A DNA stretch of 64,000 bases from Candidatus Bathyarchaeum tardum (GTDB lineage: Archaea > Thermoproteota > Bathyarchaeia > Bathyarchaeales > Bathyarchaeaceae): positions 800,001 through 864,000 of the forward strand of contig CP122380.1 in assembly GCA_024650005.2 (NCBI GenBank), read 5' to 3'. This document shows, one piece after another, positions 9,400-41,091 of the stretch (its first letter is position 1; the number at the start of each line of letters is the position of its first letter). Below the pieces are notes generated by a model. The model saw only the letters and a program-made list of their open reading frames with translations. It searched no databases and had not been told where the DNA came from. Both the position numbers and the translations under genes were made by a program.

Positions 9400-9527
9400 A
9401 CTTTTGACTTGGTTTCTGGTTAATTATATCGTATTTGTATTAGATGATTTTATTGGATTTTTTCTTATTTTATTTGGGAACAAGTACTCTGCCTTTTTGG
9501 TCAATTTTGGCGATGTCTTCACTTATT
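9400..9527 (-). pseudogene. AbrB/MazE-type antitoxin remnant
   Basis: Minus strand reads SEDIAKIDQKGRVLVPK, then stop/frameshift, then KIRK: an AbrB N-terminal signature; boundaries approximate. Confidence 0.5.
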
Positions 9528-9801
9528 GTTTTTTCCCTCTTTTTTAAGAATTCCACATGAGTAGTGGCTCGAAGATCAACAAGTGTAATTGTTGTTTCTG
9601 GTTCTGGATATGTTGTTATGCCGACAACGAGTTTAGTTTATAGTTAGTTATGCTGTTTTCTAAATCACATATAGTTTATTATTTTTTCAGATGAACTAGA
9701 TCCGTTTGAGAATCTTAGTGAAACAGGTTAAGGTTATGTTAAATGTCTTTTGAGAAATTGTTTAATAATTGTTGGTTGCTTAGAATTTGTGGTGTCATCT
9801 A

Positions 9802-10008
9802 GTGACAATAGCTGTAGACAAAGAGGAGATTCAATTAGTGCTTGACAGATTGGACACAGTTAAGCTTGAGCTTTTGCGGCTTAGGGCGTTGCTTTTGCCT
9901 GAGGAAGATGCAACTGAAGAAGACAAAAAAGAGCTACAAGAAGCAAAAAATGAAATTGCGAATGGTTCAAAAGTCAAGCTTGAAGATTTGATTGAAGAAC
10001 TGTGTTGA
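9802..10008 (+). CDS. Putative antitoxin (partner of downstream RelE)
   Basis: Small acidic protein ending KVKLEDLIEELC, overlapping relE; paralog at 35365-35577. Confidence 0.75.
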   Translation: MTIAVDKEEIQLVLDRLDTVKLELLRLRALLLPEEDATEEDKKELQEAKNEIANGSKVKLEDLIEELC

Positions 10009-10279
10009 TTTTCTTTTGTTTCATGTTATTATTTCCCAAAAAGCCAGAAAAGCTTCAAAGAGATTACCTAAAAAATATAGATATCGGATAATTGAGCTTC
10101 TGCGGTTTTTTCGTGAAAATCCTGTTCCTGCCGAATGGTATGATATAAAGAAACTAAAAGGATATACAGATACGTACCGCGCAAGAATCGGTGATTTAAG
10201 AATAATCTATGAAATCGCATGGCATCAAAAAAGTGTGCACATATTAGTAATTAAAAGAAGAGAAAATGTGTACTCTTAA
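9992..10279 (+). CDS. RelE/ParE family toxin
   Basis: DIKKLKGYTDTYRARIGDLRIIYEI...IKRRENVY. Confidence 0.9.
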   Translation: MKNCVDFLLFHVIISQKARKASKRLPKKYRYRIIELLRFFRENPVPAEWYDIKKLKGYTDTYRARIGDLRIIYEIAWHQKSVHILVIKRRENVYS

Positions 10280-10332
10280 ACTGGAAAAAATGGATGTTGT
10301 TATATTTGGTTCCTGATGTGTTTTTGTAATTA

Positions 10333-10405
10333 CAGCAACTGTTTTGGACGAAATTAAGTAGTTGTTGTTTTTGGTACAGGAAAAATCACAACAACTATTG
10401 GTTTA
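10333..10405 (+). repeat. Array repeat element, partial (IR2, GTT type)
   Basis: TAGTTGTTGT 10359-10368 / ACAACAACTA 10388-10397, preceded by a CAGCAACTGTTTTGG variant of CAACAACATTTTGG. Confidence 0.75.
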
Positions 10406-10674
10406 AGGGTTCTATTAGAACCTGGGATTTTGAAATTGCCACGGTTTACGGATGCATCTGGTTTCAGATGATCTGCATTTCAAAAAAATGAAAAATGTAG
10501 AAACAAAGTGGTATGGTGCCTCTGATTTTTTTGATTTTTGTTTTTGGCAGTTTTTTGCTAGGAAGTTTTTAGGTTCTGCATATGTTTAGGGGATAACTGT
10601 TAACTGTCAGAGCTAATTTTTTAATGCTGCTCTGTGAATGAAAATTATTTCTTGTTACGTTTTGGGGTTAATTC

Positions 10675-11310
10675 TTAGAATATGTTGACGAGGGTGGGGT
10701 AAAGAACGTAGACTATGATTAAGTATATTGTAAATAATCCTATTGTTATGATTAGGTTTTTTTGCCATTGTTTGCTGCTTGCGATTCCAAAGGGTACCCC
10801 GATTATGAATCCGATCAAGTGTCCAATGTATGATATGTTTCCTTGGGTTCCGTAATAGAATTCTATTATGTTGAAGAAAAAGTACATTATTGCAACTAAG
10901 CCTAGGGGCATTAAGAATATGAATGAAAATTTTAATGGTTTTAATAGCATGACTATCGCTGTTAAGGTGAATATGGCAGCAGAGGCTCCCAGCATTTGAA
11001 CGTTAGGCGGGTAATAAAATAGGCTGAAAAGAAATGCTCCTATTCCTCCGCAAAAGAAAGGTATGATAACCCATTTTTGTTCTAGTTCGTTTTCTATGGT
11101 GTTTCCGAATATGTAGAAAAAAATCATGTTTCCCCCCAGATGAAAAATGTCAGCGTGTAAAAATATCCCTGTAATTACGGTCCAAATCATTCCTTTTTGA
11201 AGATTTTCACCACTGAATACTAGATTGTTTAGTAACGTTTGGTCACCAATGAACCAGACTGTTAATGAACTTAAAATACAAAATAGAATTAGCACATTGG
11301 TTTTGTTCAT
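10675..11310 (-). CDS. Rhomboid family intramembrane serine protease
   Basis: FLHADIFHLGGNM, catalytic GASAA, HLIGF. Confidence 0.92.
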   Translation of the reverse strand: MNKTNVLILFCILSSLTVWFIGDQTLLNNLVFSGENLQKGMIWTVITGIFLHADIFHLGGNMIFFYIFGNTIENELEQKWVIIPFFCGGIGAFLFSLFYYPPNVQMLGASAAIFTLTAIVMLLKPLKFSFIFLMPLGLVAIMYFFFNIIEFYYGTQGNISYIGHLIGFIIGVPFGIASSKQWQKNLIITIGLFTIYLIIVYVLYPTLVNIF

Positions 11311-11709: not shown

Positions 11710-11795
11710 GGGGTAAGCTGTTTTTTAGTTAACTTTAAGGTTTTGTTGTTGTTGGGGGGAGGGGGGGTCAACAACAACATTTGTGTTTTAAGGAA
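11709..11795 (+). repeat. Array repeat element, G-loop hairpin (IR3)
   Basis: GTTGTTGTTG 11745-11754, G-rich loop, CAACAACAAC 11769-11778; flanks nearly identical to 15056-15138. Confidence 0.9.
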
Positions 11796-14585: not shown

Positions 14586-14675
14586 AGAATTTTTTTGATT
14601 TAGAATTTGCTGTGGGTTTTGGATTTTGTAGGTCTGAATTAGTATTTGTTTGATTGTTATGGACAAATGCTGTTG

Positions 14676-14894
14676 CTATTCTATTAGGTTTAGAATTTCT
14701 TCTTTTGTTAAGTCTGCTTCGGATATGATTGTCAGCAGTAGTCCTGTTTTTATTTCTCTGTGTTTTGGAACTGGAACTATGGTTTCGTTTTTGATTAGAA
14801 TTAAGTGGCTTCCTTTTTGTCGGGCAACTTGAAAACCTGCTTTGGCTAGGGCTTTTACTACTTTACGCCAAGAGAGCAGTGGGAGTTTCGACAA
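14676..14894 (-). CDS. hicA: HicA family toxin (copy 1)
   Basis: LAKAGFQVARQKGSHLIL..VPVPKHREIKTGLL; one residue different from 24659-24877. Confidence 0.9.
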   Translation of the reverse strand: MSKLPLLSWRKVVKALAKAGFQVARQKGSHLILIKNETIVPVPKHREIKTGLLLTIISEADLTKEEILNLIE

Positions 14895-14995
14895 TGACCT
14901 CAGCCCGTTCTCCTTTATGGCCGTGGCTCAAAAGTTCCGCTTTTACTTCTAAGTATCCTTCTATGGCTTCTTTGATGTTTTTTAGAGCTTCTTGT
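14863..14995 (-). pseudogene. 5'-truncated hicB
   Basis: Matches the 3' part of hicB 24846-24978 almost exactly, then switches to the array repeat. Confidence 0.9.
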
Positions 14996-15004
14996 TATGT
15001 TTTT

Positions 15005-15135
15005 GTTGTTGTGCATTTGAAAATGATTGTTTGAACAACAGTATCTTTGATTGTTGGGGGTTAAGCTGGTTTTTAGTTAACGTTAAGGTTTTGTTGTTGG
15101 GGAGGGGGGTCAACAACAACATTTGTGTTTGAAGG
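15005..15135 (+). repeat. Array repeat element (IR1 plus G-loop IR3)
   Basis: GTTGTTGT..TTTGAACAAC, then TTGTTGTTG-GGGAGGGGGGT-CAACAACAAC-ATTTGTGTTTGAAGG. Confidence 0.88.
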
Positions 15136-15197
15136 AAAATTTCTAGTAAGGTAAACAGTTATTGGGGTTTGTTGATTTTTCTAAGTGGAGCACATAA

Positions 15198-16139
15198 ATG
15201 TTGTCTGTTGATGGCACAGTTTTGGTTACTGGGGGTGCAGGTTTCATAGGCAGCCATATTGTCGATCGGTTGCTTAAAGATGGGGTTAAAGTACGGGTTG
15301 TTGATGATCTTTCTACTGGGGATAAATCAAATCTTAGTCAGCATAAAAATAACCCTGATTTTGAGTTCGTCCAAGGAGATATCCGGGATTTTGGTGTTGT
15401 GCAAAAGGCTGTAAAAGGTGTTGATGCCGTAGTTCATGAAGCAGCCCTTGTAAGTGTTATTCAATCTGTTGGGGATCCGTTGTTTTCTAACAGTATTAAT
15501 GTTGTAGGTTCTCTTAATTTGCTTAAAGCCAGTGCAGAAGAAAAGGTGCATCGGTTTGTTTTTGCGTCTTCTTGTGCAGTCTATGGGGCTTGTGAAGATT
15601 TGCCTCTTACCGAAGAGTCTAGTGTAAAGCCTCTTTCTCCGTATGCAGTGGATAAGTTAGCTATGGAAAATTATGCTCGGGTTTTTAATGAGGTCAGTGA
15701 TTTGGAAACGGTTGGTTTGCGGTATTTCAATGTGTATGGACCACGGCAAAAATGTGGTCCGTACTGTGGCGTGATTTCTGTTTTTTTTGATAGTTTCTTG
15801 AGAAATAAGTCTCCTGTTATTTTTGGTGATGGGGAGCAGACCCGTGATTTTGTTAATGTGTCCGATGTTGTTGAAGCTAATTTGTGTGCTTTAACAAGAG
15901 TTCAAGCTGCTGGGCAGGTGTTCAATGTGTGCACTGGGAAAGCAACCACAGTGAACAAGGTTTTAGCTGCTGTTGGGGAAATTGCAGGTAAATCGGAAAT
16001 TGAAGCTGTTTATAAACAGTCTCGAGCAGGAGATATCAAACATAGTTATGGGGATAATAGTAAAGCAAAACGTGGATTAGGTTTTGAAGCGAAGGTTGAT
16101 TTAAAAACCGGTTTATCTGAGTTGTTTTCGGTAGGCTAA
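15198..16139 (+). CDS. NAD-dependent epimerase/dehydratase (GalE/WbpP-like SDR), intact copy
   Basis: [48 protein letters not shown]. Confidence 0.93.
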   Translation: MLSVDGTVLVTGGAGFIGSHIVDRLLKDGVKVRVVDDLSTGDKSNLSQHKNNPDFEFVQGDIRDFGVVQKAVKGVDAVVHEAALVSVIQSVGDPLFSNSINVVGSLNLLKASAEEKVHRFVFASSCAVYGACEDLPLTEESSVKPLSPYAVDKLAMENYARVFNEVSDLETVGLRYFNVYGPRQKCGPYCGVISVFFDSFLRNKSPVIFGDGEQTRDFVNVSDVVEANLCALTRVQAAGQVFNVCTGKATTVNKVLAAVGEIAGKSEIEAVYKQSRAGDIKHSYGDNSKAKRGLGFEAKVDLKTGLSELFSVG

Positions 16140-17962: not shown

Positions 17963-18007
17963 TTTGTTTTTTGGCTGGGACCGGTGATTGTTGGTTTGGG
18001 TGTGTTT

Positions 18008-18034
18008 AAGTAATACTTGTTATAGGTATTACTT
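18008..18034. promoter_or_regulatory. Inverted repeat, candidate AbrB-VapC operator
   Basis: AAGTAATAC-N9-GTATTACTT just before ATG 18044; conserved at 36820-36846. Confidence 0.65.
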
Positions 18035-18043
18035 GTGTTAAGT

Positions 18044-18271
18044 ATGACTGAAGTTGCGGTTACGAAAAAGGGGCAAGTTACAATACCTGTGGAGCTAAGA
18101 AGGAAGTTTGGCATAGAAGAGAGTTCAAAAGTGGAAATAGTAGAGGAAGAGGGAAAAATTGTGATCAGAAAGTGTTCCAGCATTTTTGATTTAGCAGGCA
18201 GTGGTGCAGGTAAAGCTGAAGTCAAAGAGTTAAAAAGGGCTTTAGATCAGATGAGGCAAGAAGATGCCTGA
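18044..18271 (+). CDS. AbrB/MazE/SpoVT-family antitoxin (copy 1)
   Basis: VTKKGQVTIPVELRRKFGI. Confidence 0.92.
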   Translation: MTEVAVTKKGQVTIPVELRRKFGIEESSKVEIVEEEGKIVIRKCSSIFDLAGSGAGKAEVKELKRALDQMRQEDA

Positions 18272-18662
18272 AAGTTGCTTGTATGATACTCGTTTTTTTG
18301 TTGAATATTTTTATTCAAATGACGTAGAATTTCGCAGCAAGCTCAAAAAAGATCTTAAAGACGTAAAAGAGCGTTTGGTTTCTGCTTTGGTAGTTCATGA
18401 AATTCATAAGATCAGTCTAGAAAGACAAGGGAAACAAGTTGCCTTCTTAAGGAGTAACATCATTTGCAGGGATTTTAAAGTTGTAGAGGTGGATTTTGTA
18501 ATCGCCCTAAAAAGTGCAGAATTAAGAAGCAAGCACAGGATACCCTTAGCCGATAGTGTAATTGCAGCCTCTGCCCAAGTTCACAGATGCACTCTGGTTT
18601 CAGACGATCCTCATTTCAAAAAAATAAAAAATGTAAAAACAAAATGGTATAGCATCCTCTGA
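18264..18662 (+). CDS. vapC: VapC/PIN toxin (copy 1)
   Basis: LYDTRFF, VVHEI, LADSVIAASA, LVSDDPHF. Confidence 0.92.
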   Translation: MPESCLYDTRFFVEYFYSNDVEFRSKLKKDLKDVKERLVSALVVHEIHKISLERQGKQVAFLRSNIICRDFKVVEVDFVIALKSAELRSKHRIPLADSVIAASAQVHRCTLVSDDPHFKKIKNVKTKWYSIL

Positions 18663-18674
18663 TTGTCTAGAAAC

Positions 18675-18869
18675 GTTGTTATAACGGCAACAACATTTTG
18701 GAAAGAGCAAAAAAGTAGTCGTCTTTTTGGTATACAGTTACTGGACGACTACTACTGCCTTAAAGAATGGGTCACAAGATGTTTTACTTGAACATGATTT
18801 TGCATAATATGCTAGTTTTGTTGTTGTTGGGGGGTAGGGGGGGTCAACAACAACATTTGTGTTTGAAGG
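18675..18869 (+). repeat. Array repeat element, near full length
   Basis: CAACAACATTTTG 18688-18700; AGTAGTCGTC 18714-18723 / GACGACTACT 18744-18753; GTTGTTGTTG 18820-18829 / CAACAACAAC 18845-18854. Confidence 0.95.
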
Positions 18870-18871: not shown

Positions 18872-19065
18872 CCATAAGCAGTTTTGGGATTTGCCCTTAT
18901 CTGCTCAAAGCCTGTGCAGTTTCAAATGTGAAACGGTTTGTTTTTTCTTCGTGTGCAGTTTATGGGGCTTATGAAACAGTGCGTATTAACGAAGGGTCTT
19001 GTGTAAAGCCTCTTTCGCCATATGGTGGATAAGTTAATTCGTTGGAAATTATGTTCGGGTTTTTA
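18872..19065 (+). pseudogene. Internal fragment of the NAD-dependent epimerase
   Basis: CTGCTCAAAGCCTGTGCAG..GTGAAACGGTTTG..TGTGCAGTTTATGGGGCT..GTAAAGCCTCTTTCGCCATATG matches about 15520-15690 and 40394-40450. Confidence 0.85.
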
Positions 19066-20972: not shown

Positions 20973-21120
20973 TTGTAAAAACTCTAAGGATTTGTATGTT
21001 AATAGTTTGATTAAAGGTATATTAATCCTAAACAGTTCAAAAGTGTTATTCGGTTTTGTTTGTATATTTGTTTCGATGATACTAGAATTTTAGCTTGCAT
21101 GGTCTGCCTTTTATTTGAAT

Positions 21121-21214
21121 CAAAAATTCTGTTTTTGTTTTGTTGTTTGAGTTGAAAAATTGTTTGAAAAACAACATTTTGGAAAGAATATAGAAGTTGT
21201 TGTTTTTTGAGCAG
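21121..21214 (+). repeat. Array repeat element, truncated inside the IR2 loop
   Basis: TTGAGTTGAAAAATTGTTTGAAAAACAACATTTTGGAAAGAATATAGAAGTTGTTGTTTTTTGAGCAG, then the relE stop at 21218. Confidence 0.85.
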
Positions 21215-21217
21215 CAC

Positions 21218-21499
21218 TCATGAGAGGTTTGAATACGCGTTTTTTCTGGTTTCTGCGTGGGTAACGTATATGGTTTTTTGTTTTTTATCCACTTGAAAAA
21301 TTATTCTGTAGTTACCGATTCTTATTCTAAAAGTTTTTTGCAAGCCTTTGATTTTTTTTATGTCCATGTTTTTCAAGGTTAATGGATAATTTTCGAGTTT
21401 TATAATGTGGTTAATAATTCTTTGTTTCAGGTTTTCGTTTTTTATTGTTGTTAAAAATTTCTGTACTCGGTGGTGAGCTACAACTTTGTATTTAGGCAC
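21218..21499 (-). CDS. RelE/ParE family toxin
   Basis: DIKKIKGLQKTFRIRIGNYRIIFQVD...RKNAY. Confidence 0.9.
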   Translation of the reverse strand: MPKYKVVAHHRVQKFLTTIKNENLKQRIINHIIKLENYPLTLKNMDIKKIKGLQKTFRIRIGNYRIIFQVDKKQKTIYVTHAETRKNAYSNLS

Positions 21500-21704
21500 T
21501 CTGGAGTTCCTCGAGTGTTACACAATTTCCTTTTTTCATCTCTTGGACTGATTGGTTTATTTCTTCAATTTTTTCTTTGCTTAGTGCTACTTCTGGAAGG
21601 CTTTTTATGATCACTTCTTCGATAACGTCTTCAATTAGCCTAAGTTGTTCATTCATTTTTTTGACTTCGTCGTAAATCATTTCAAGAGTAACATTAGCAG
21701 ACAT
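21492..21704 (-). CDS. Putative antitoxin for RelE
   Basis: 70-aa acidic protein overlapping relE, ends EMKKGNCVTLEEL. Confidence 0.8.
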   Translation of the reverse strand: MSANVTLEMIYDEVKKMNEQLRLIEDVIEEVIIKSLPEVALSKEKIEEINQSVQEMKKGNCVTLEELQSA

Positions 21705-22030: not shown

Positions 22031-22075
22031 ATTCTGTCTTGTTGTTTAAGTTAAAAAATGTTTGAACAACCACAT
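22031..22075 (+). repeat. Array repeat element, partial IR1
   Basis: GTTGTTTAAGTTAAAAAATGTTTGAACAAC directly before the duplicated MNT-HEPN block. Confidence 0.7.
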
Positions 22076-22183
22076 GTAGTTAGAGTTTGTAGGCGTTGTA
22101 GAGTTTTGTATCTATTTCTTTTTGGGGTGATTGATGGGTGTTGATGGCATCTTTTAAAAAGGGCTAGAGTAGTTAGTTTATTT

Positions 22184-28166: not shown

Positions 28167-28240
28167 ACGATTATGTAAATATGCTAGTTTTGTTGTTGTT
28201 GGGGGGTAGGGGGGTCAACAACAACATTTGTGTTTAAAGG
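28167..28240 (+). repeat. Array repeat element, G-loop IR3
   Basis: ATGCTAGTTTTGTTGTTGTTGGGGGGTAGGGGGGTCAACAACAACATTTGTGTTT. Confidence 0.92.
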
Positions 28241-29520: not shown

Positions 29521-30339
29521 TCAAATTTCAAGAGCACCATTTGTCAATTCGATTAAAGTTTTATAGGCTTCAGTTTTTCCAAAAAGAACTGAGTCAGGTA
29601 TCAGTGTCCCGAATCTGGATTTTTCTTTTAACACATAAAGAAATATGATTATTTCTTTTGCGAGTCCTCTTCTGCTTGCATATCGGGTAAGGCGGTTAAA
29701 ATTGATTTTTCCATTTTTCAGAAGATTTCCAAAAATAATTCCCAATTCGTATGAGCTAAAACTAAATTTTTTTCGGGTAATAAAATAGAACAAGTCTACC
29801 CACATTCTCTCTAAAGTTGGAATAATGGGTCCTTTTGCCATAATGAGTCCGTAAAGTTCTTTTCGTTCCAAAATGAATATTGTTTTTCTGTTGTTTTCAG
29901 CGTATTCTTGAAAATCTCTTACTAGAGGTCGCAAAACAACTTTGTAAGTGTTTGATGGGATTGCATCTCGGATACTTTTTGAAAGTATTTTTGTTGTTTC
30001 AATAAATATTGCATCCTTTCCTATAGCATAATGAGAATAATCTGAAAACATACTCAAAGACCAATATACTGGATTTGCCATTGGGAAGCGATTTTTTAAC
30101 TGCGTGGTAAGATCGTAAACATCTGAGGGCAAAATTGGTATTTCAGGCGGAGTTTGACCTTTGCGATATATGCCCCTGCCCACATTCATGATTATGCCCA
30201 TTTTTGCCATTCGACTTAGGTAATTTTTTGCGGTTACACGAGATATTTTTAGATCAGACACAAGATTGTCTATTGAAACGTTGTCATGATTTGTTACGTA
30301 TTCGATTGCTTTTTTTGGGACCGAGGAAAAATCACTCAT
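29521..30339 (-). CDS. AbiEi-like (type IV TA) antitoxin/regulator, orphan
   Basis: wHTH YLSRMAKMGIIMNVGRGIY; C-terminal PTLERMWVDL...RLTRYASRRG. Confidence 0.75.
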   Translation of the reverse strand: MSDFSSVPKKAIEYVTNHDNVSIDNLVSDLKISRVTAKNYLSRMAKMGIIMNVGRGIYRKGQTPPEIPILPSDVYDLTTQLKNRFPMANPVYWSLSMFSDYSHYAIGKDAIFIETTKILSKSIRDAIPSNTYKVVLRPLVRDFQEYAENNRKTIFILERKELYGLIMAKGPIIPTLERMWVDLFYFITRKKFSFSSYELGIIFGNLLKNGKINFNRLTRYASRRGLAKEIIIFLYVLKEKSRFGTLIPDSVLFGKTEAYKTLIELTNGALEI

Positions 30340-30344
30340 GAAAA

Positions 30345-30395
30345 AAAAATATACCTTTGTCAATATATAAGGTTTGTTGTCAAAAGTATATTTTT
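30345..30395. promoter_or_regulatory. Long inverted repeat upstream of the AbiEi-like gene
   Basis: AAAAATATACCTTTGTCAA...TTGTCAAAAGTATATTTTT flanking TATATAA; AbiEi proteins autorepress through promoter inverted repeats. Confidence 0.7.
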
Positions 30396-30424: not shown

Positions 30425-30560
30425 CTGAGTTAAAAAATATTTGAACAAGCGCCCCTTTGGAAAGAATACAGAAGTAGTTGTTGTTTTTTGTGCATGTAAT
30501 TCACAACAACTAGTTTAAAAAATGCATCAAATCGTTTTTGGATATTTAAACATGTTTTTG
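30425..30560 (+). repeat. Array repeat element (IR2, GTT type)
   Basis: TTTGGAAAGAATACAGAAGTAGTTGTTGT..CATGTAATTC..ACAACAACTA. Confidence 0.87.
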
Positions 30561-30695
30561 GAATAAATGTTGATAAAACTCAATATAAGTTGCCACATCT
30601 TCAACACTTATTCTAACCAATCTTTTGAGGTTTTCTTTGTTTAAAGGTGACATAGTTTATCACCCATCAAGCAAGCGATCTTTTTTGTACACAAT

Positions 30696-31639: not shown

Positions 31640-33100
31640 TTAGTTTAGTTGGTAAATTGTGATTCTTTGGTAGTTTTGTATTGGTTTCCATTGGTTTGGG
31701 ATTTGTAGTTGGTGTAGGGTTTGGTTTTGGTTCCACCATATAAAGTATAAGTTGTTGTAGCCTTGGTTTTTTGTGTAGTTTGCAGCATTTTCTAAATTAA
31801 AGTCAAACAGGTATGCTTGATGGTTTGTGTTTAGGTATAGCATTGCCCAGTTGTCAAATAGGTCGTGAATTAGCACTGCTGAGTTGTTGTTCATGTTGTT
31901 GTTTAGCCAGTTGAAAGCTTGTTGGGTGCCCTTAATGTCCTGCAATGGGATTGAAGTTGTTTGCATAGTTGAAGGGACATATTTTGTAGTTCCGCCCCAG
32001 TTGATAAATCCTTTATTGTTGTCCGATAACGGCCATGCCATAAATATTGTTGCCATGGTCATGGAAGCAAGAATTAATAGTATGCAGATTTTTTTGGCAT
32101 GTTTGAATTGTTTAATAAAGTTTAGTAATTTGTTTTTGTTTTGGTTTTTTACGATTTTGTGCAGTCCATTAGTAGCATAAAATGAGAATGGAAAAATTAG
32201 AAGCAGCATCCATCTTGCCCATAAAAATACTGAAAAAAATGGGGCAACTAAGCAGCCTAATCCGGTGATTAGTAATAGGATTGTCCAAATAGTAAACGGC
32301 CTATCTTTAAAGTATCCAATTATGATCAGGGGCATCATTAAGCCATACAATAAAAGAAACAAAGAAGCTACATTAGACGCCAACTGGAAGTATGAAGAGT
32401 ACGTTTCTATCGGGGTTTGAACCGTTAAGTAATCTGTCAAAAAAAACAGTCCCCCCGGATGAGCCCAAACGCTATCGTCTATCCGGACAATATTGGATTC
32501 CGTAGGGATCGCAAACGGTGAAATCCAAAAAAAGTTGCCCATAAACAGCAATATCGCAGGAAGAATCGCCAAAAAAAGTTTGTACGGAATTTTTTGTTTT
32601 TTTAACGCACTAACAATAACCCAGCCAAACACAATAAAGAACAAAGAAGCCATCGCAAGTTCATGACCCCAAACCGTAAAAATGGCCAGTACCGATAAAA
32701 CGGTTAATTCTTTGAAAGACGCATCATTTTTCAGCAACGGAAAAGCAAACAGCAAAACCATTACGCCCAGCATGTTTCGGTAAAATTGCCAACTAACCGC
32801 TAAACTTGCAAGTTGTAAAGAAAAAATTAACGAAACTAATAGGCACTTTTTTGGGTTCCATTTTAGTCGTTTCCAAGCAACAAAATATACTCCCGCACAG
32901 GTTCCAGCATACAATAACGGAGCAAATATTTTCAGGATAATAAACGGATCAACCTTAGTAATATTAGTTAAAGCAACTAAAATTCCGTAAACCAGCCAAG
33001 AATTAACTAAATCACTGCCAACAGTAAAGGCAACCCCCGAATTCATCCGAGAAGCATAATAAATTGTATCCAAACCAACAGGAAACGGAAAACTTAACAA
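31640..33100 (-). CDS. Multi-pass membrane protein (GT-C-like), paralog of 55286-56827
   Basis: Shared DTIYYASRMNSG, SWQFYRN, WAHPGGLFF, KYVPSTMQ; homologous N-terminus continues in frame to about 33170 with no ATG. Confidence 0.8.
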   Translation of the reverse strand: MLSFPFPVGLDTIYYASRMNSGVAFTVGSDLVNSWLVYGILVALTNITKVDPFIILKIFAPLLYAGTCAGVYFVAWKRLKWNPKKCLLVSLIFSLQLASLAVSWQFYRNMLGVMVLLFAFPLLKNDASFKELTVLSVLAIFTVWGHELAMASLFFIVFGWVIVSALKKQKIPYKLFLAILPAILLFMGNFFWISPFAIPTESNIVRIDDSVWAHPGGLFFLTDYLTVQTPIETYSSYFQLASNVASLFLLLYGLMMPLIIIGYFKDRPFTIWTILLLITGLGCLVAPFFSVFLWARWMLLLIFPFSFYATNGLHKIVKNQNKNKLLNFIKQFKHAKKICILLILASMTMATIFMAWPLSDNNKGFINWGGTTKYVPSTMQTTSIPLQDIKGTQQAFNWLNNNMNNNSAVLIHDLFDNWAMLYLNTNHQAYLFDFNLENAANYTKNQGYNNLYFIWWNQNQTLHQLQIPNQWKPIQNYQRITIYQLN

Positions 33101-34885: not shown

Positions 34886-34970
34886 GTAGTTGTTGTTTTT
34901 TGGTTGAGCACGATTTTGTATTAGCAGTATTTTTGTTGTTGTAGGGGTAGGGGGGTCAACAACAACAAAT
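34886..34970 (+). repeat. Array repeat element, G-loop IR3
   Basis: TTTGTTGTTGT-AGGGGTAGGGGGGTCA-ACAACAACAAA, followed by the epimerase leader. Confidence 0.88.
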
Positions 34971-35047: not shown

Positions 35048-35300
35048 ATGTCAGTTGGTTTTTCTAAAATTTTGGTTACAGGTGGTGCAGGTTTCATTGG
35101 AAGTCACATTTTTGATAAGTTGCTCGAGGAAGGAATCAAAGTAAAGGTAATTGATAATCTTTCAACTGGAGATATAACAAACCTTAGTCAGCACGCAAAC
35201 AACCCTGATTTTGAGTTCATCCAAGGAGAAATCTGAGATTTTGATTTTGTCCAAAAAGCTGTCAAAGGGGTTGATGCACTAGTCCATGATGCAGGCCGGG
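35048..35300 (+). pseudogene. 5' fragment of NAD-dependent epimerase
   Basis: [13 protein letters not shown]; in-frame TGA ending 35236; homology ends near 35295. Confidence 0.88.
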
Positions 35301-35577: not shown

Positions 35578-35724
35578 TTTTTTTGTTTCAGGCTCTTGGG
35601 CGTTAATGTTGAAATTTTGGTCAGAGTTTGTGGGCGTTGTAGAGTTTTGTATCTATTTCTTTTTGGGGTGATTGATGGGTGTTGATGGCATCTTTTAAAA
35701 AGGGCTAGAGTAGTTAGTTTATTT

Positions 35725-36027
35725 GTGGGCAGCATGAAGTCAATTGATGAAATAAAAGGTGTTTTGGTTGAACATAAAAGGGAGCTAAGAGAAAGATTTC
35801 ATGTAAAAGAGATTGGTGTTTTTGGTTCTTTTGTGAGAAAAGAACAAAAAAAGGGAAGTGATGTTGATGTGTTGGTTGATTTTTTTGAGACCATAGATTT
35901 GTTTACGTTTGTTGAACTTGAGAATTATTTAAGTGAGCTTTTAGGGGTTAAAGTTGATCTAGTTATGAAGGGAGCTCTTAAGCCTCGGTTGGAGGAGAGA
36001 ATTTTAAGTGAGGCTGTTTATGTGTGA
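35725..36027 (+). CDS. MNT antitoxin (copy 2)
   Basis: Protein identical to 22184-22486. Confidence 0.93.
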   Translation: MGSMKSIDEIKGVLVEHKRELRERFHVKEIGVFGSFVRKEQKKGSDVDVLVDFFETIDLFTFVELENYLSELLGVKVDLVMKGALKPRLEERILSEAVYV

Positions 36028-36365
36028 GAGATTTTCGTGTCTACCTTGAAGATATGGTTGAAGCCATTAATTGTATAGAGGAGTACACGCGGGGGATGAG
36101 TTATGAAGCATTTGTTAAGGATAGAAAAACCGTAGATGCTGTAGTTAGAAATTTTGAAATCATTGGTGAAGCAGCTAAAAACGTTCCAAATGAGGTAAGA
36201 AAAATTTACTCCAACTTGCCTTGGAAGGAAATGTCAGGAATGAGAGATAAACTGATCCATGCATATTTTGGAGTTAAATTAGATGTTTTATGGAAAACAA
36301 TTAAAGAACGCTTAATTGTGGTAAAATTATTAGTTGAAGAAGCTCTGGTCGAATTGGAACAATAA
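36024..36365 (+). CDS. HEPN/DUF86 toxin (copy 2)
   Basis: Protein identical to 22483-22824. Confidence 0.93.
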   Translation: MRDFRVYLEDMVEAINCIEEYTRGMSYEAFVKDRKTVDAVVRNFEIIGEAAKNVPNEVRKIYSNLPWKEMSGMRDKLIHAYFGVKLDVLWKTIKERLIVVKLLVEEALVELEQ

Positions 36366-36408
36366 AGACTGAACGGACAGTTTCTATTCGAATTCTGTTT
36401 TGTGTAAA

Positions 36409-36772
36409 CAAAAATTCTGTTTTCTTTTTGTTGTCTGAATTGAAAAATGTGTACACAACAACATCTTGGAAATAATGCAGAAGTAGTTGTTTTTTTGCTG
36501 CAGGTAATTAACAACAACTACTGTTTAAAAAGGGAATCAAAACACGTTTAGTAATTGAACAGGATTTAAAAAAATGTTATTTTTGTTGTTGTTAGAGTTG
36601 AAAAAACTTTTGAACAGCAATATTTTGTAGAGTACAGAAGTAGTCGTCTTTTCTGTACCAGTTACTGGACGACTACTACTTTATAGAATATATTAAAACA
36701 TGTTTTTTGTTTGTACATGATTACACAAAAAATGTAGATTTGTTGTTATCAGAAGGGTAGGGGGTCAACAAT
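36409..36772 (+). repeat. Two tandem array repeat units
   Basis: AGTAGTTGTT 36482-36491 / AACAACTACT 36513-36522; IR1 near 36585-36620; AGTAGTCGTC 36639-36648 / GACGACTACT 36668-36677; degenerate G-loop IR3 near 36740-36771; IR2 copies 157 bp apart. Confidence 0.92.
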
Positions 36773-36855
36773 GATTGTTTTTTGGCGGGTCTGGGTGATT
36801 GTTGGTTTGGGTTATGTTTAAGTAATACTTGTTGTAGGTATTACTTGTGTTAAGT

Positions 36856-37083
36856 ATGACTGAAGTTGCGGTTACGAAAAAGGGGCAAGTTACAATACCT
36901 GTGGAGCTAAGAAGGAAGTTTGGCATAGAAGAGAGTTCAAAAGTGGAAATAGTAGAGGAAGAGGGAAAAATTGTGATCAGAAAGTGTTCCAGCATTTTTG
37001 ATTTAGCAGGCAGTGGTGCAGGTAAAGCTGAAGTCAAAGAGTTAAAAAGGGCTTTAGATCAGATGAGGCAAGAAGATGACTGA
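36856..37083 (+). CDS. AbrB-family antitoxin (copy 2)
   Basis: Identical to 18044-18271 except the last residue. Confidence 0.92.
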   Translation: MTEVAVTKKGQVTIPVELRRKFGIEESSKVEIVEEEGKIVIRKCSSIFDLAGSGAGKAEVKELKRALDQMRQEDD

Positions 37084-37474
37084 AAGTTGCTTGTATGATA
37101 CTCGTTTTTTTGTTGAATATTTTTATTCTGCTGATGTAGAATTTCTCAACAAGCTCAAAAAAGATCTTAAAGACGTGAAAGAGCGTTTGGTTTCTGCTTT
37201 GGTTGTTCATGAAATTCATAAGATCAATCTAGAAAAACAAGGGAAACAAGTTGCTGTCTTAAGGAGTAACATCATTTGCAGGGATTTTAAAGTTGTAGAA
37301 GTGGATTTTGTAATCGCCCTAAAAAGTGCAGAATTAAGAAGCAAGCACAGAATACCCTTAGCAGATAGTGTAATTGCAGCTTCTGCCCAAGTTCACAGAT
37401 GCACTTTAGTTTCAGATGATCCTCATTTCAAAAAAATAAAAAATTTAAAAACAAAATGGTATAGCAGCCTCTGA
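37076..37474 (+). CDS. vapC: VapC/PIN toxin (copy 2)
   Basis: Close paralog of 18264-18662. Confidence 0.92.
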   Translation: MTESCLYDTRFFVEYFYSADVEFLNKLKKDLKDVKERLVSALVVHEIHKINLEKQGKQVAVLRSNIICRDFKVVEVDFVIALKSAELRSKHRIPLADSVIAASAQVHRCTLVSDDPHFKKIKNLKTKWYSSL

Positions 37475-37486
37475 TTGCCTAGAAAC

Positions 37487-37575
37487 GTTGTTATAAAGGC
37501 AACAACATTTTGTAATTAGTATAGAAGTAGTTGTTTTTTGTGTACAGGCAATTCACAACTACTACTGGTTTAAAC
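37487..37575 (+). repeat. Array repeat element, chimeric copy
   Basis: Left of CAACAACATTTTG (37500-37512) matches 18663-18700; right matches 22928 onward. Confidence 0.9.
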
Positions 37576-37690
37576 AGTGTCAAACTTCAGAAAAGCATTC
37601 TTTTGTTAACTAATTAATTTATGAAAGTTGATTTTTTCTGGTTTTGATTTTTTATGGATTTTTGGTGTTGTAAATTGTGATGCTGTATTT

Positions 37691-38098
37691 TTATTTTGTG
37701 GATTTAGTGATGTCGTTCAGTTTTAAAGCTTTGGTGTATGATGCGATTTTTTTTGTTAGCCGCATATCTTCGGTTATAAGTGTTAGTTCTTTTGTTTTGG
37801 CATGGTAAGTGTATGAGGCGTCGTAGAATGTGATTTTCAGTTTTGTTGCGGTTTCTAGTATTTCTTCTTCGGTGCAGTTTATTTGTGTGATTTCCATGAG
37901 GTTTAGTGTTTGCTTGATTATTTTTGCTAGTTTTTTAATTTCTTGATCTGTAGCGTTGGCGTGTAAGGAATAATTTTTCCATAGGATGTTTCCCAGTTCG
38001 TACCTTGCCAGTTCTATTGTGTGGTTTCCAATTAGAAAGTCGATTTTGTTTTCTTTTATGGCGTTAAATATGGCAGATGAGTCGAATAGGTATTTCAT
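37691..38098 (-). CDS. vapC: VapC/PIN toxin (second family, copy 2)
   Basis: Near-identical to 23105-23512. Confidence 0.92.
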   Translation of the reverse strand: MKYLFDSSAIFNAIKENKIDFLIGNHTIELARYELGNILWKNYSLHANATDQEIKKLAKIIKQTLNLMEITQINCTEEEILETATKLKITFYDASYTYHAKTKELTLITEDMRLTKKIASYTKALKLNDITKSTK

Positions 38099-38325
38099 TT
38101 ACGGTTTCTGTCCTCTCTTATGCCCTTCACTATGTTTTCTATGTTTACCCTGTTGAGTGTTGGTTTTAGTTTTTGTATGTCTTCTTTGAGTTTTTCTGCT
38201 TCTCTTCGTCTTATTTCGTCTTCTATGGCTTTTCGTAATAGTTTGGATGGTTTAATGTTTAGTTGTTTTATTTTTTCTTTGAGTTCTTGGGGGATTTTTG
38301 TGGAGACGGTTACAGACTTGTTCAA
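38095..38325 (-). CDS. RHH/VapB-type antitoxin (copy 2)
   Basis: Same protein as 23509-23739 from TTG 38325. Confidence 0.85.
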   Translation of the reverse strand: MNKSVTVSTKIPQELKEKIKQLNIKPSKLLRKAIEDEIRRREAEKLKEDIQKLKPTLNRVNIENIVKGIREDRNRK

Positions 38326-38634
38326 ATTATCACCAATAGGTAATACAAAATAGCAGAATAATAAGTTTACCATATTTTCTTACCTTCCATTACGCTTTTT
38401 TTCATCAAAATACAGTCATTAAAAAGTAAGCTGCCCGGCTTTGATTCTACCTAGTCGATTCAATCCCAGTTTTCATAGATAGCTGATTTTGGATGCAAAT
38501 CTGGTTATGTTTTTTAACCCTAGCTTAGCTTCAAGAGCCAAGTTCTTGTCATGCGAGGAATCGACAATAATAGAGCTTTCTTTTCGCGATTTTTGTTGTT
38601 TATGAATTGATGCTGTTATTGTTTGGCCAGAGTT

Positions 38635-39015
38635 TTATGTTTTCAGTTTAACTGCAGAGGGTTTTTTGTGGATAACTTGTATGATGTTTAGATGTTCCAG
38701 TAAGGGTACTACGTAGCTGCCTTGGGATGATCGTTTGTTGGTTGCTGAGTTTTCGCGCAGGTATCTTTCCAAAGTTCCTTTGCGTATTTTTTTTAGGGCA
38801 TAATGTCGGGCTCCGATTTTGACCCAGCCTTTGTTTTTAAGAAAATTTGGTACTCCGTTCAAGGATTCTTTTGTAACTGTGATTTTTGTTTTTTTTACCA
38901 TGAAAATGATTTGTTCAGGTTGTTTGTGTAAAAGTTTGAACGGTTTATATCTAACCGGAGTATACAAAATTAGTCCTTCAGGAGCTTCTGTTAGTATTTT
39001 ATCAAATACTGACAA
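38635..39015 (-). CDS. Hypothetical basic protein
   Basis: 126-aa ORF; only its 3' end survives at 24040-24090. Confidence 0.65.
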   Translation of the reverse strand: MSVFDKILTEAPEGLILYTPVRYKPFKLLHKQPEQIIFMVKKTKITVTKESLNGVPNFLKNKGWVKIGARHYALKKIRKGTLERYLRENSATNKRSSQGSYVVPLLEHLNIIQVIHKKPSAVKLKT

Positions 39016-39204
39016 TTAGGTCACAAATATTGTGTTTGCTTTCATATATTTGAAATTTTCGTTAATTAATTGTTAATTGTTATGGTGTTTGTGAAAAAAT
39101 TCATAGAATTTGATGTTTTGTATCGGTGCTACTTTATAGTTTTAAGAAATGGAATGTTATGTAGTTATTGATGAAAACTAGATGTATGTTTAACTGATCT
39201 AAAG

Positions 39205-39732
39205 TTATTTCACAACTTCTCTAAGGCTATACAGTTCCTTTTCTGAAGCATTAGCATAAACGGTGAAACTATACATGATTACTGTTCCTTTCAGATCCGG
39301 GTTTAGGTCGTTAGTTAAAATAAAGTAAGCAGCCTTAACGTTATGTTCAGTTGAAAAACTTGTTGCAGATCTAAAGATCGCATGTAAATATGTTGAATCT
39401 TCTAAAAGTTCATCTAAAAATTGTCTATTTTCTGAGCTTTCAATAACCCAACTGGCTCTGTTCAGAATGTCCGTGATTTTAACAACCAAAGGATCCAAAC
39501 TATTGCTCGTATGATGAATCAGTGAACCATTATAATAAAATTGAAAAATAGCAAGTGAAGAAACAGGCTCTTCCGGAAAAGGTTTTTTGTCTTCAATAAA
39601 TGCATTAACATCATTAACCCATTCTGTATCTTTTTCTCCAAATCTAAAAAATTGAACAACAATTATCACAGATAATGCAACAAGAATAATCAAAATAAAA
39701 ACAATTTTTTTTCTTCTTAACAAATTTATCAA
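39205..39732 (-). CDS. Hypothetical protein with N-terminal TM anchor
   Basis: RRKK followed by a hydrophobic helix. Confidence 0.65.
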   Translation of the reverse strand: MINLLRRKKIVFILIILVALSVIIVVQFFRFGEKDTEWVNDVNAFIEDKKPFPEEPVSSLAIFQFYYNGSLIHHTSNSLDPLVVKITDILNRASWVIESSENRQFLDELLEDSTYLHAIFRSATSFSTEHNVKAAYFILTNDLNPDLKGTVIMYSFTVYANASEKELYSLREVVK

Positions 39733-39810
39733 ATTTAATTATTCTGCGTTTCTTTTCTTACCTTTTTTGGTAACTCAAATCATGAGTTAGATCCATAAGT
39801 AGTTAATTCA

Positions 39811-39995
39811 GAAAAATGTTGAAACAAGAACGGTTTCGAAAAGAGAATAGAAGTAGTCGTCTTTTTTTTACAGAATTCTGGACGACTACTACTTCTTTAA
39901 AGAATGCATTAAAACGTGTTTGTTGGTTGAACACAATTATGTAATAATGATAGTTTTGTTGTTGTTGGGGGTAGGGGGGTCAACAACAACAAATC
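39811..39995 (+). repeat. Array repeat element, last copy
   Basis: AGTAGTCGTC 39852-39861 / GACGACTACT 39881-39890; GTTGTTGTTG-GGGGTAGGGGGGT-CAACAACAAC 39958-39990. Confidence 0.95.
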
Positions 39996-40073
39996 TTTTT
40001 GAGGGAAAAAGTGTTTGAAGGATAATTCAATTATGGTGATTTGTTGTTAGTTTCTAATTGAGGTTCACAAAGG

Positions 40074-41091
40074 ATGTCAATTGGTTTTGGTAAAGTTTTG
40101 GTTACCGGCGGTGCAGGTTTTATTGGAAGTCACATAGTTGACAGGTTAATTGAGGAAGGGGTTAAAGTAAGGGTCTTGGATGACCTTTCAAAGGGATGTA
40201 AATCAAACCTTAGTCAACATGAAAACAACCCGGATTTTGACGTCATCAAAGGAGGCGTCAGAAATCTTGATGCTGTAAAAAAGCTGTTAAAGACATCAAT
40301 GCGGTAATCCATGAAGCAGAACTGGTAAGCATCATCAAATCAATTGAAGACCCATTGCTTTCAAACAGCATAAACGTTGTAGGAACCCTGAATCTGCTCA
40401 AAGCATGTGCAGAATCAAAAGTGAAACGGTTTGTCTTTGCTTCTTCATGTGCAGTGTACGGTAACACAAACGATTTACTTATCAAAGAAGATGTTTTACA
40501 TAAGCCTCTTTCACCCTATGCTACAGACAAATTAGCCGCAGAAAACTATGTCAAAGTTTTTAATGATATGACAGAACTTGAAACGGTAACTTTACGTTAC
40601 TTCAACGTTTATGACCCCAAACAAAGATATGGACAATACAGTGGAATAATTTCGATTTTTATTAACAGTTTGTTGGAAAATAAATCACCTGTAATTTATG
40701 GAGACGGACAACAAACAAGAGATTTTTGTTAATATAAAAGACGTAGCTGAAGCAAATATAAGTACATTATCAAAAACGAAGTATTTCAGGTGAGGTTTTC
40801 AATGTTTGTACCGGCGAAGCGTTATTCATTAACAAAATTTCTAGAACCATCCAAAGTATTTTGGAAAAAACGTCTATTGAACCGGTTTACAAAAAACGTA
40901 GACAAGGAGACATTAAACACAGTTTTGGAGATAATTCTAAAAATAAAGAATTGTTGCGGTTTGAACCTGAAGTTAAGATAGAAACCGGACTAAACAAACT
41001 CATAAAACTGAGGAAGTTAAAATCAGGAAAGTTGGTTTTTTTAGAAGAAAGGTTGAATCTCCAACAGATTAAACAATTCATGCTTTTATAA
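40074..41091 (+). pseudogene. Full-length but multiply frameshifted NAD-dependent epimerase
   Basis: ORFs 40074-40307, 40355-40732 and 40861-41091 are consecutive pieces matching 15198-16139. Confidence 0.9.

Follow-up and report, generated by a model that had tools for sequence, protein, structure and literature searches.

A repeated hairpin element separates toxin–antitoxin modules beside a glycosylation cluster in Candidatus Bathyarchaeum tardum and resembles a hairpin of tailed viruses

Results

Organization of the array and anatomy of the repeated element

The genome of the archaeon Candidatus Bathyarchaeum tardum (G000) is a single contig of 2,152,572 bp with 38% G+C, and the window analyzed here is the whole 64,000-nucleotide stretch at genome positions 800,001–864,000. 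At window positions 9787–41010, a span of ~1.5% of the genome, ~17 modules, mostly toxin–antitoxin (TA) pairs, lie between copies of one repeated hairpin element, forming an array that extends from a first RHH/ParE pair to a frameshifted epimerase pseudogene abutting a glycosylation cluster. Coordinates below are those of the window unless they are given as genome positions. The gene coordinates are our own picks of open reading frames (ORFs), made without curated annotation, and the genes were named from Pfam and PADLOC scans, which covered 40 and 10 window ORFs, respectively.

An nhmmer model of the element, built in three iterations seeded by one copy and applied at E ≤ 0.01, matched 29 places in the 2,152,572-bp genome. 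Sixteen of the matches fall at 10,331–39,993 of the window, every one on the + strand, and the 13 outside the array are divided between the + strand (eight) and the − strand (five). An earlier sequence-only reading of the window had listed 17 positions of one non-coding element, all pointing the same way. All 17 positions are real, corresponding to the 16 matches and to a partial 17th copy, a remnant of the hairpin LB only (22,039–22,075, +), and the uniform orientation holds for 16 of the 16 matches. The repeated element itself is real as well, but it proved to be a composite of modules that is often truncated. A repeat search detected families of repeats of 33–78 nt all along 10–40 kb. Rather than being spread evenly without TA enrichment, 16 of the 29 copies are packed into 1.5% of the genome.

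A full copy measures ~180–250 nt and consists of three hairpins, LB, hpA and hpB, whose stems are of the (TTG)n/(CAA)n type. LB reads TTGTTGT-loop-ACAACAACA, and at its 3′ foot lies the core CAACAACA/TTTT. A conserved TTTTGGAAAGA sits between LB and hpA, which is composed of AGAAGTAGTCGTC, about 20 nt and GACGACTACT. The spacer of ~55 nt between hpA and hpB includes TTTAAAGA, hpB reads TTGTTGTTGTTG-GGGGGGTAGGGGGGGT-CAACAACAACA, and in several copies a leader of ~85 nt follows hpB. Only five array copies are full or nearly full length, and the remainder are truncated at various modules. Among the long copies are el4 (18686–18857), el8 (25136–25336; LB, hpA and hpB), el9 (26983–27178), which served as the reference copy, and el16 (39815–39993), which is followed by the leader and the epimerase pseudogene. 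The left half of the array contains el1 (10331–10456; core, hpA and part of the spacer with no hpB; E 5e-15, model positions 10–133), el2 (11729–11781; hpB with a variant upstream spacer; E 6e-11), el3 (14990–15197), el5 (21117–21215; LB, core and the start of hpA), el6 (22864–22995) and el7 (24458–24597), which runs from the core through the spacer and is cut in the hpB 5′ arm at the start of a HicAB module. In el3, LB truncates a HicB gene at ~15,002 and is followed by a variant spacer, hpB at 15,084–15,123 and the ~85-nt leader to the ATG of an epimerase gene. Further to the right lie el10 (28144–28228; spacer, hpB and leader), el11 (30426–30569; LB with a degenerate core, hpA and spacer), el12 (34895–34970; spacer and hpB, then the leader and an epimerase fragment), el13 (36405–36595; LB, hpA and spacer), el14 (36563–36771), which comes directly after el13 and has a degenerate hpB cut in its 3′ arm at the start of an AbrB–VapC module, and el15 (37498–37581; core and hpA).

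Folded as single-stranded DNA, two full copies gave z-scores of −4.6 and −3.2, which were equaled by 0 of 200 shuffles. The pairing of hpA is kept in 92.5% of the cells across 16 copies. Both partners have changed (GC to AU types) in three of its ten pairs, and the covariation score was attained in 0 of 500 shuffles, where it should be considered that the copies are related, so that their independence is overstated, and that the hpA stems are 3-nt periodic, so that a partner shifted by +3 also pairs well. The compensatory changes in hpA and the folding scores together indicate that the hairpins are maintained.

Outside the array, solo copies of the element are found at seven non-provirus sites of the genome (259 k, 384 k, 1,182 k, 1,736 k, 1,747 k, 1,895.9 k and 2,099 k). 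At the 2,099 k copy, synteny with the related genomes G016 and G010 ends ~70 nt before the element. Neither terminal inverted repeats nor target duplications are evident by eye in the element alignments. Of 21 genomic occurrences of the core motif ACAAC[AG]TTTTG, six are in the array, each of them on the + strand. When the exact hpB pattern was searched for in 185,579 species genomes, a single match was obtained, in a 1.5-kb contig (L023) that starts inside the element, and the same pattern had 0 matches in IMG/VR and 0 in JGI metagenomes. A pattern of hpA with its T loop was detected in one short metagenome contig (L050), and a second array for comparison was not found in these searches. No Rfam family reached its gathering score anywhere in the window, and a search with four element copies at E ≤ 1 returned nothing except a chance ROSE_2 match within a gene. 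A tRNA search of the window found none, so there is no tRNA anchor for the array.

Gene content of the modules

By our own criteria, ten TA pairs in the array are intact, namely two ParE-type, two AbrB–PIN, two MNT–HepT, two RHH–PIN, one HicAB and one HEPN–nucleotidyltransferase (NT) pair. They are predicted to belong to type II TA families (PIN/VapC, HicA, HepT–MNT, ParE/RelE and HEPN–NT), as judged from a Pfam match of the toxin and an adjacent small partner gene. Pfam supports at least the toxin in seven of the ten pairs, and three of the ten are duplicates recognized by 93–98% nucleotide identity and by genome-wide family matches.

The array opens with a small unnamed ORF and a ParE/RelE-type toxin gene (9787–10279, +; Pfam ParE_toxin, E 4.6e-6), and a second ParE/RelE-type toxin gene with a small ORF upstream is at 21218–21704 (−). 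An AbrB/MazE-type antitoxin with a PIN (VapC) toxin is encoded at 18035–18662 (+) and again at 36847–37474 (+, 93.8% identity to copy 1), an MNT nucleotidyltransferase with HepT at 22184–22824 (+) and 35725–36365 (+, 98.1% identity to copy 1), and a PIN toxin with an RHH/CcdA-like antitoxin at 23105–23739 (−) and 37691–38373 (−, 93.5% identity to copy 1). In copy 1 of the last pair, the PIN at 23,105–23,512 stays under the Pfam cut-off (21.1 vs 23.6 bits). HicA with a HicB-like antitoxin lies at 24659–25079 (−), and a HEPN protein with a 234-aa nucleotidyltransferase at 25401–26595 (−) matches the PADLOC candidate family PDC-M05A. Another three pairs are considered putative, combining DUF2283 with a small ORF, a Zn-ribbon/SpoVT protein with an ORF of 102 aa, and DUF5678 with an ORF resembling an aspartyl protease. 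There are also three broken or orphaned modules, including HicA with a 5′-truncated HicB (14676–15002, −; 95.4% identity to 24,595–24,985) and HicB with a HicA remnant (26601–26916, −), and there is one AbiEi-like orphan (DUF6577; 29521–30363, −; PADLOC AbiEi, E 1e-31).

The sequence-only reading spoke of about a dozen intact known or predicted TA pairs in the array, which also contains genes unrelated to TA systems: a rhomboid gene, LemA with an M48 peptidase, a PIN-ATPase-KH gene, two sugar epimerases, among the non-TA genes being a UDP-GlcNAc 2-epimerase, and three epimerase fragments or pseudogenes. A 486-aa membrane protein (31640–33100), for which no Pfam family was found, is encoded by a paralogue, with 69% nucleotide identity, of the gene for a 513-aa protein in the glycosylation cluster (55286–56827). 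The enrichment of TA genes beside the element is clear from the share of the genome's family matches that falls within this 1.5% of the genome, that is, five of five for PIN (one of them being the PIN-ATPase-KH protein, which is no TA toxin), three of three for HicA and two of three for HepT, together with two of four for ParE, three of eight for MazE/AbrB and three of nine for NTP_transf_2. Cargo on either strand, another point of the earlier reading, is confirmed by the 28 gene units that we picked, 11 on + and 17 on −, mostly arranged as two-gene modules. In the ORF list, the first gene following an element lies on the + strand in eight cases and on the − strand in seven. No island integrase, replication, interference or capsid-remodelling gene was found among the 40 ORFs scanned with Pfam or the 10 scanned with PADLOC.

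Duplicated modules and exchange junctions

Self-BLAST located three duplicated blocks that recur in a different order, i.e., AbrB–VapC (17,964–18,764 = 36,775–37,574, 93.8%), MNT–HepT (22,079–22,987 = 35,620–36,530, 98.1%) and VapBC (22,915–24,090 = 37,500–38,675, 93.5%), as well as a duplicate of HicA and part of HicB (14,612–15,002 = 24,595–24,985, 95.4%). The difference in order is, as the sequence-only reading held, beyond what one tandem duplication can produce. The duplicates do not represent a single event because their ages differ, with identities of 98.1, 95.4, 93.8, 93.5 and 82%.

The junctions were mapped by anchoring the elements on the CAAC core of LB and comparing the flanking segments in three-way alignments. 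The 60 nt left of the core pairs el4 with el15 (93%) and el6 with el13 (95%), and the sequence right of the core pairs el4 with el8 (92–93%), el6 with el15 (82–88%) and el9 with el16 (84–96%). Both el4, which is full-length, and el6 are chimeric in this sense, and el15 equals the left part of el4 plus the right part of el6. The switch window lies within TTTTG in el4 and within (A/C)ACAACAACAT in el6, and both windows are compatible with a single point just after CAACAACA. Longer identical runs in the parent elements, such as 17 nt in hpA of el13 vs el15 (our own count on the alignment), were left unused. The resolvable exchanges, amounting to two or three junctions, are compatible with a position at the core, between CAACAACA and TTTT at the 3′ foot of LB.

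Two histories would account for this, the insertion of a 4.2-kb segment (18,7xx–22,918) at an el15-like site and the reciprocal deletion. The same core is also where the MNT–HepT unit ends, through a separate event that differs in age. Left ends of modules border CAAC-type arms as well, that of MNT–HepT copy 1 being 12 nt downstream of the core of the LB-only remnant. The AbrB–VapC module has its left end at the 3′ arm of a truncated hpB in copy 2, and at the LB core in a cassette of the relative G010 (87% nucleotide identity, 2.7-kb contig). Likeness that ends at one core, with el15 as the sum of two other elements, is the trace expected from excision or insertion between direct repeats, and therefore the cassettes appear to have been inserted or deleted by recombination between direct cores. 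Evidently, recombination between element copies in direct orientation has duplicated, added or removed modules of the array.

Recombinases and integron features

The genome has 11 matches to the tyrosine recombinase family PF00589, eight of them over the cut-off. On either side of the window, the first matches come at 653.8 kb and 944.3 kb, the closer one ~80 kb away, in agreement with the earlier statement that no recombinase is in view. The best genome score for the IntI model TIGR02249 was 41.6 bits vs a cut-off of 265, the Y1/HUH transposase family PF01797 had 0 matches in the genome, and no serine recombinase was found in the genome. The attC site of integrons is an imperfect palindrome, R″(RYYYAAC)-L″...L′-R′(GTTRRRY), with extrahelical bases, and most integron cassettes are single ORFs without a promoter of their own, oriented one way and read from the promoter Pc. 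The stems of the element carry GTT on the 5′ side and AAC on the 3′ side, opposite to RYYYAAC...GTTRRRY. Inspected in alignments and folds, they are perfect and free of bulged bases, so that the earlier description of the site as unlike attC is upheld.

The epimerase gene and related genomes

In el3, hpB and the leader run into the ATG of an intact NAD-dependent sugar epimerase/dehydratase at 15,198 (15198–16139, +; Pfam Epimerase, E 2e-62). The same arrangement precedes three epimerase remnants. One, just after el4, covers aa 108–149 (18,901–19,023, +; tblastn and Pfam), and another, after el12 and the leader, covers aa 8–83 (35,069–35,296, +). The third is the full-length, frameshifted pseudogene at the right end of the array (40,089–41,010, +), which tblastn recovers in four pieces in different frames with 52–69% aa identity to the intact copy. 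In the related genomes G016 and G010, a diverged hpA is located upstream of the orthologous epimerase, and G010 also has an hpB-like hairpin and leader there. Because the hpA/hpB body lies upstream of the epimerase both here and in relatives, most of the element body (hpA, spacer, hpB and leader) was ancestrally the upstream region of the epimerase, at the head of the glycosylation cluster, and that the array grew there. Its growth evidently left the three epimerase fragments or pseudogenes behind.

Three gene blocks, LemA–M48, PIN-ATPase-KH and 2-epimerase, are common to G010 and G016, and their order is different in G000, with the orientation kept. Altered order with kept orientation is what direct-repeat exchange predicts, and in these three blocks the order is not invariant among relatives, although those searched lack such an array. 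The element copies of G016 are solo, one being at a contig end, and PIN genes occur in eight of 25 genus genomes. In G016, contig C35 (L025) carries at 2410–2583 an hpB-like palindrome on the opposite strand that overlaps the end of an element, an arrangement unlike every copy of G000.

Hairpins in tailed viruses

Searched with a regular expression for hpB, the genome yields 18 copies, eight of them in the array. One copy is inside a 137-aa ORF encoding a helix-turn-helix (HTH) protein (genome 645,813–646,226), which overlaps the start of a large-terminase gene (terL, Terminase_6N) in a resident tailed provirus (L015, genome 631–654.4 kb; integrase at 653.2–654.4 kb, at the right end). The hpB palindrome is the same 40 nt in the array and in the HTH gene of this provirus. 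Further copies, at least three (619 k, 1,548 k and 1,896.9 k), are in decayed copies of the HTH gene recognized by tblastn, and the flanks of the gene are partly present around those at 350 k and 1,329 k. In the array, hpB keeps the 16-nt loop of the resident virus nearly invariant with its flanks diverged to 70–85%, and such a loop would suggest selection, or conversion, by a shared binding factor.

Homologues of the 137-aa protein were found in 15 of 60 family genomes. In eight of 12 homologous loci the best perfect inverted repeat (7–14 bp) lies in the codons for aa 45–52; in two it lies elsewhere, and two have no repeat of ≥7 bp. The virus loci with a perfect 9–14-bp inverted repeat in the linker, from relatives and IMG/VR, are L031, L032, L034, L037, L038, L039, L048 and L049. 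The viral stems co-vary between viruses, and the linker codons specify VVV...TTT. The G004 virus reads TTAGAAGTAGTCGTC...GACGACTACTTCTGA, with the stem GAAGTAGTCGTC/GACGACTAC, which is the hpA stem, and the other variant of hpA is found in the G003 virus, GAAGTTGTTGT...ACAACAACTTC. At E < 0.01, the array element model matches six of the 12 virus loci at the exact hairpin spot. Two IMG/VR contigs have the same hairpin beside terL homologues with 57–59% identity, and in one of them, L049, it is inside the HTH-gene homologue. The viral proteins are only 28–55% identical, while the inverted repeat is kept at the DNA level. On this sequence evidence, the hairpin is a conserved DNA-level feature of the tailed viruses of the lineage, and the array hairpins are the same kind of inverted repeat as the hairpin of the viral HTH gene, not attC.

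An AlphaFold model of the HTH protein (11-sequence alignment, pLDDT 79) has an N-terminal three-helix HTH and long C-terminal helices, and the hairpin-coded linker residues 50–59 are modelled as disordered (pLDDT < 50). PHROG 323, which the protein matches, is labelled “transcriptional regulator,” and PDB profiles match its GcrA/Myb-type HTH domain only. No small-terminase match was found with Pfam, PHROGs, PDB profile, Atlas or Foldseek (E ≤ 0.001), the architecture obtained being that of an HTH with a coiled coil. The possibility that hpB is a mobile in-frame insert, like the Rickettsia palindromic element (RPE), was rejected, as homologues have a linker of equal length, VVV...TTT, at that place. 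The provirus has an intact HTH gene, for which reason a role of the hairpin as attP was dropped, and a search for att sites of the provirus found no flanking repeat with the hairpin sequence, the only repeat being one of 17 nt due to chance. To our knowledge, no packaging signal is known for these archaeal viruses, and the in-gene inverted repeat beside terL is a candidate for a cis-acting site of theirs. A paper on viruses of Bathyarchaeia mentions terminase, and no packaging site or inverted repeat was found in the available part of its text (10.1101/2023.08.24.554615).

Two features of these loci may be recorded separately. The structural genes of the resident provirus lie ahead of the HTH/terL pair, and the gene after terL matches PHROGs labelled ABC-ATPase, not the portal family. 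A type IV TA pair, AbiEi/AbiEii (genome 348,295–349,703; L012:4296–5704), is located ~550 nt upstream of a copy of hpB belonging to a decayed provirus fragment.

GC skew and other features of the window

The GC skew of the 10-kb bins at genome positions 800–840 kb is 0.125, 0.245, 0.169 and 0.155, ranking sixth, first, second and third of 215 bins. Within the array, where ~12.2 of 31.7 kb is non-genic by our ORF picks, the skew is +0.26 in non-genic sequence and +0.06 in minus-strand genes, and that of the minus-strand glycosylation cluster is −0.07; the + strand of the 40-kb region is G- and T-rich even over minus-strand genes. A replication origin or terminus was considered as the cause and rejected, the extremes of the cumulative skew being instead at 0.52 and 1.55 Mb. 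The skew fits a polar process, that is, one treating the two strands of the array differently.

Two observations were made elsewhere in the window. A sequence of ~130 nt in an ORF-poor gap (1160–1300, +) is present in 1–4 copies in every genus genome with 74–80% identity, and its fold z-score is −3.9 for the + strand as against −0.2 for the − strand. Rfam returned no match, and the sequence is a candidate for an unnamed small RNA. The segments at 5333–5567 and 5626–5948 recur at genome positions 1,570,102–1,570,843 with 92% and 77% identity, respectively, as a duplicated segment unrelated to the array.

Discussion

The locus can be explained as a lineage-specific, hairpin-delimited cassette array in which exchange takes place at the core and whose hairpins are related to those of viruses, a reading that we believe and doubt in equal measure. 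Self-contained modules, mostly type II TA pairs of unrelated families with a few ordinary local genes, lie between direct copies of the element. A protein recognizing the hairpins, more likely a virus-associated one than an integron-type integrase, might make or resolve breaks at the hairpin foot, and TA modules would accumulate because they resist loss. The sequence-only reading had proposed an analogous archaeal cassette system, and its layout, orientation, TA concentration and non-attC site all agree with that proposal, but no integron part was found. As to the enzyme, which it supposed to be encoded elsewhere or supplied by host recombination, no IntI, serine or HUH recombinase was found genome-wide, and the route through short homology in the host is a live alternative.

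Several observations weigh against the cassette-array reading. Only two or three independent junctions are resolvable. In addition, el7 stops within the 5′ arm of hpB and el14 within its 3′ arm, and HicB is broken off at the LB 5′ arm, with TTGTTT microhomology only. The truncations fall at different hairpin arms, and therefore short-homology recombination by the host stays in play; breaks at several (TTG)n/(CAA)n arms fit palindrome fragility followed by short-homology repair. The duplicated 0.8–1.2-kb blocks could in principle be the result of mis-assembly. Only its position overlapping terL would make the HTH gene a small-terminase gene. The distribution of the element is narrow: BLAST over 30 relatives gives matches only in G016, one of 18 other genus genomes in that sample, and a pattern scan over 24 other genomes of the genus, mostly fragmented metagenome-assembled genomes (MAGs), finds hpA in three, namely G016 (three element-type copies) and, at the virus hairpin, G002 and G004. 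There is no array in any relative searched, most of these being fragmented MAGs. Finally, AbrB–PIN pairs of G031 and G014, which represent two further species of the genus (L044, L045 and L046), stand beside homologues of glycosylation/sugar-nucleotide genes with the element absent. TA accumulation there therefore needs no element, and the TA–glycosylation neighbourhood seems to be wider than the element.

One possibility, which we regard as doubtful though worth serious consideration, is that no dedicated machinery is involved, and that the structured upstream region of the epimerase, containing terminator, promoter and leader, was multiplied by segmental duplication, the locus then being scrambled by host repair of fragile palindromes through short-homology or homologous recombination. 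Such an origin would agree with the hpA/hpB body and the ~85-nt leader directly upstream of the intact epimerase, with their diverged versions in G016 and G010, and with the three epimerase fragments or pseudogenes after hpB. The variable truncation arms, the one junction with TTGTTT microhomology only, the TA pairs that relatives have beside glycosylation genes without the element and the lack of a recombinase nearby also favor it, and the TA modules would persist as addictive ones. It is difficult, however, to reconcile with two independent junction windows that coincide at a 9–13-nt core despite longer identical runs, or with the near invariance of hpB and its 16-nt loop between flanks at 70–85%. 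Moreover, downstream genes on + in eight cases and on − in seven imply that the element is no general promoter, the same palindrome is present in a provirus gene, and the most extreme GC skew of the genome, which extends into minus-strand genes, points to a polar process. Transposition of a repeat resembling a miniature inverted-repeat transposable element (MITE) or a repetitive extragenic palindrome (REP) into the spaces of a pre-existing TA island could explain the solo copies at seven non-provirus sites and the 2,099 k copy, where the synteny of G016 and G010 ends. This explanation is nevertheless highly improbable in our estimation, with no Y1/HUH transposase in the genome, no terminal inverted repeats or target duplications seen in alignments, copies truncated at internal hairpins instead of full units, and a single orientation in the array that transposition would not lead one to expect.

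Another group of explanations assigns the site to viruses or integrons. The element might mimic a packaging signal, in that viral sites of the pac type were copied into the chromosome, where they would cause one-way headful packaging, and with it high-frequency transduction of the TA and glycosylation genes, or act as a decoy lowering virus yield, and where cuts by terminase at the foot of the hairpin would supply recombinogenic ends. We think this unlikely. The pac sites of P22, SPP1 and P1 lie in the small-terminase gene, and hpB is the same 40 nt as in a gene overlapping terL of the resident provirus. The inverted repeat is kept at the DNA level among viral proteins of 28–55% identity, in a linker modelled as disordered, 16 of 16 array copies point toward the glycosylation cluster, and the GC skew is both polar and extreme. 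A recent study, in its available part, describes bacterial defence islands that make use of lateral transduction from nearby sites of prophages and phage-inducible chromosomal islands (PICIs) (PMC12829572). On the other hand, the pac role of the hairpin is putative, the HTH protein is without a TerS match, and G016 has 3–4 copies of the element, yet no homologue of the HTH gene was found there with this query. A more far-reaching proposal is that the three hairpins are viral recognition or cleavage sites for packaging, copied and multiplied by the chromosome, and that the viral HTH/terminase machinery, in place of an integrase, cuts at the hairpin foot and drives both the insertion, deletion and shuffling of cassettes and the one-way headful packaging of the array and the glycosylation cluster, with the array serving as a packaging decoy too; we would not give it much credit, but if it were true, the array would be a virus-powered, integron-like cassette platform in Archaea that doubles as a packaging decoy. 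A canonical integron, or a cluster of attC sites lacking the integrase (CALIN), we judge to be practically out of the question. The TA-rich arrangement of short modules between copies of a structured site does recall such elements, and integrons and CALINs with canonical attC have been reported in Archaea, with TA genes ranking among the most frequent cassette functions and making up 10.5% of annotated cassette proteins in the accessible portion of that report (PMC9668308). However, the IntI model scores 41.6 bits vs the cut-off of 265, the stems are perfect with GTT 5′, AAC 3′ and no bulges, and the cassettes lie on both strands, often with two genes.

A hairpin-delimited TA array in Archaea was not described in the literature that we searched, supplementary tables aside, and the available part of a paper on Bathyarchaeia MAGs mentions no toxin, integron or repeat (PMC11697101). 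The B. tardum array combines an integron-like layout and apparent fixed-point exchange with an unrelated hairpin site. The hairpin that it has in common with the packaging-gene region of tailed viruses would provide a testable candidate for the movement of TA and defence cassettes in an uncultivated archaeal lineage.

Cassette arrays have been described both for integron attC/IntI and for Xer/pdif sites. Sedentary integrons and CALINs resemble the present array in their many short modules, their repeated hairpin site of one orientation and their richness in TA genes, as far as the available part of the survey shows (PMC9668308), and also in an exchange that may occur at a fixed point at the hairpin foot and in an integrase that may be locally absent, as in a CALIN. 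The array differs from integrons in that the genome has no IntI, the site is a three-hairpin composite of ~180–250 nt with perfect (TTG)n/(CAA)n stems, the modules lie on both strands and usually consist of two genes, presumably self-promoted, and no attI/Pc end is visible. The pdif sites of Acinetobacter plasmids are Xer sites of 28 bp (11-6-11) that flank each module in alternating orientation. The pdif modules are likewise small TA or accessory modules between short recombination sites and are served by a housekeeping enzyme in trans, whereas the sites in B. tardum are long hairpins, 16 of 16 on the + strand, and no 11-6-11 site is apparent by inspection.

With pseudo-pac sites, PICIs, Staphylococcus aureus pathogenicity islands (SaPIs) and islands subject to lateral transduction, the array shares a TA/Abi-rich region, a sequence identical to a site in the packaging region of a resident virus, and uniform polarity. 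It is unlike satellites in having no island integrase, replication or capsid-remodelling genes among the scanned ORFs, in the 16-fold repetition of the site between cassettes, in its archaeal host and in the putative nature of the pac role. Systems of REPs, bacterial interspersed mosaic elements (BIMEs) and REP-associated tyrosine transposases (RAYTs) are similar with respect to repeated extragenic palindromes, compensatory stem changes and composite clusters; in contrast to them, the present genome has no Y1 transposase, and 16 of 29 copies are concentrated in one 30-kb locus in one orientation, not alternating.

Integrases and a tRNA gene as anchor are the usual mark of additive flexible genomic islands. 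The array is like those flexible islands that neighbour glycosylation, or replacement, islands in that the cassette region adjoins a surface-glycosylation cluster, a place where G031 and G014 also have TA pairs, but the window has neither tRNA nor integrase, and a dedicated repeated hairpin element is found instead. The array would thereby tie together TA accumulation, hypervariable glycosylation islands and virus packaging, which are usually studied apart.

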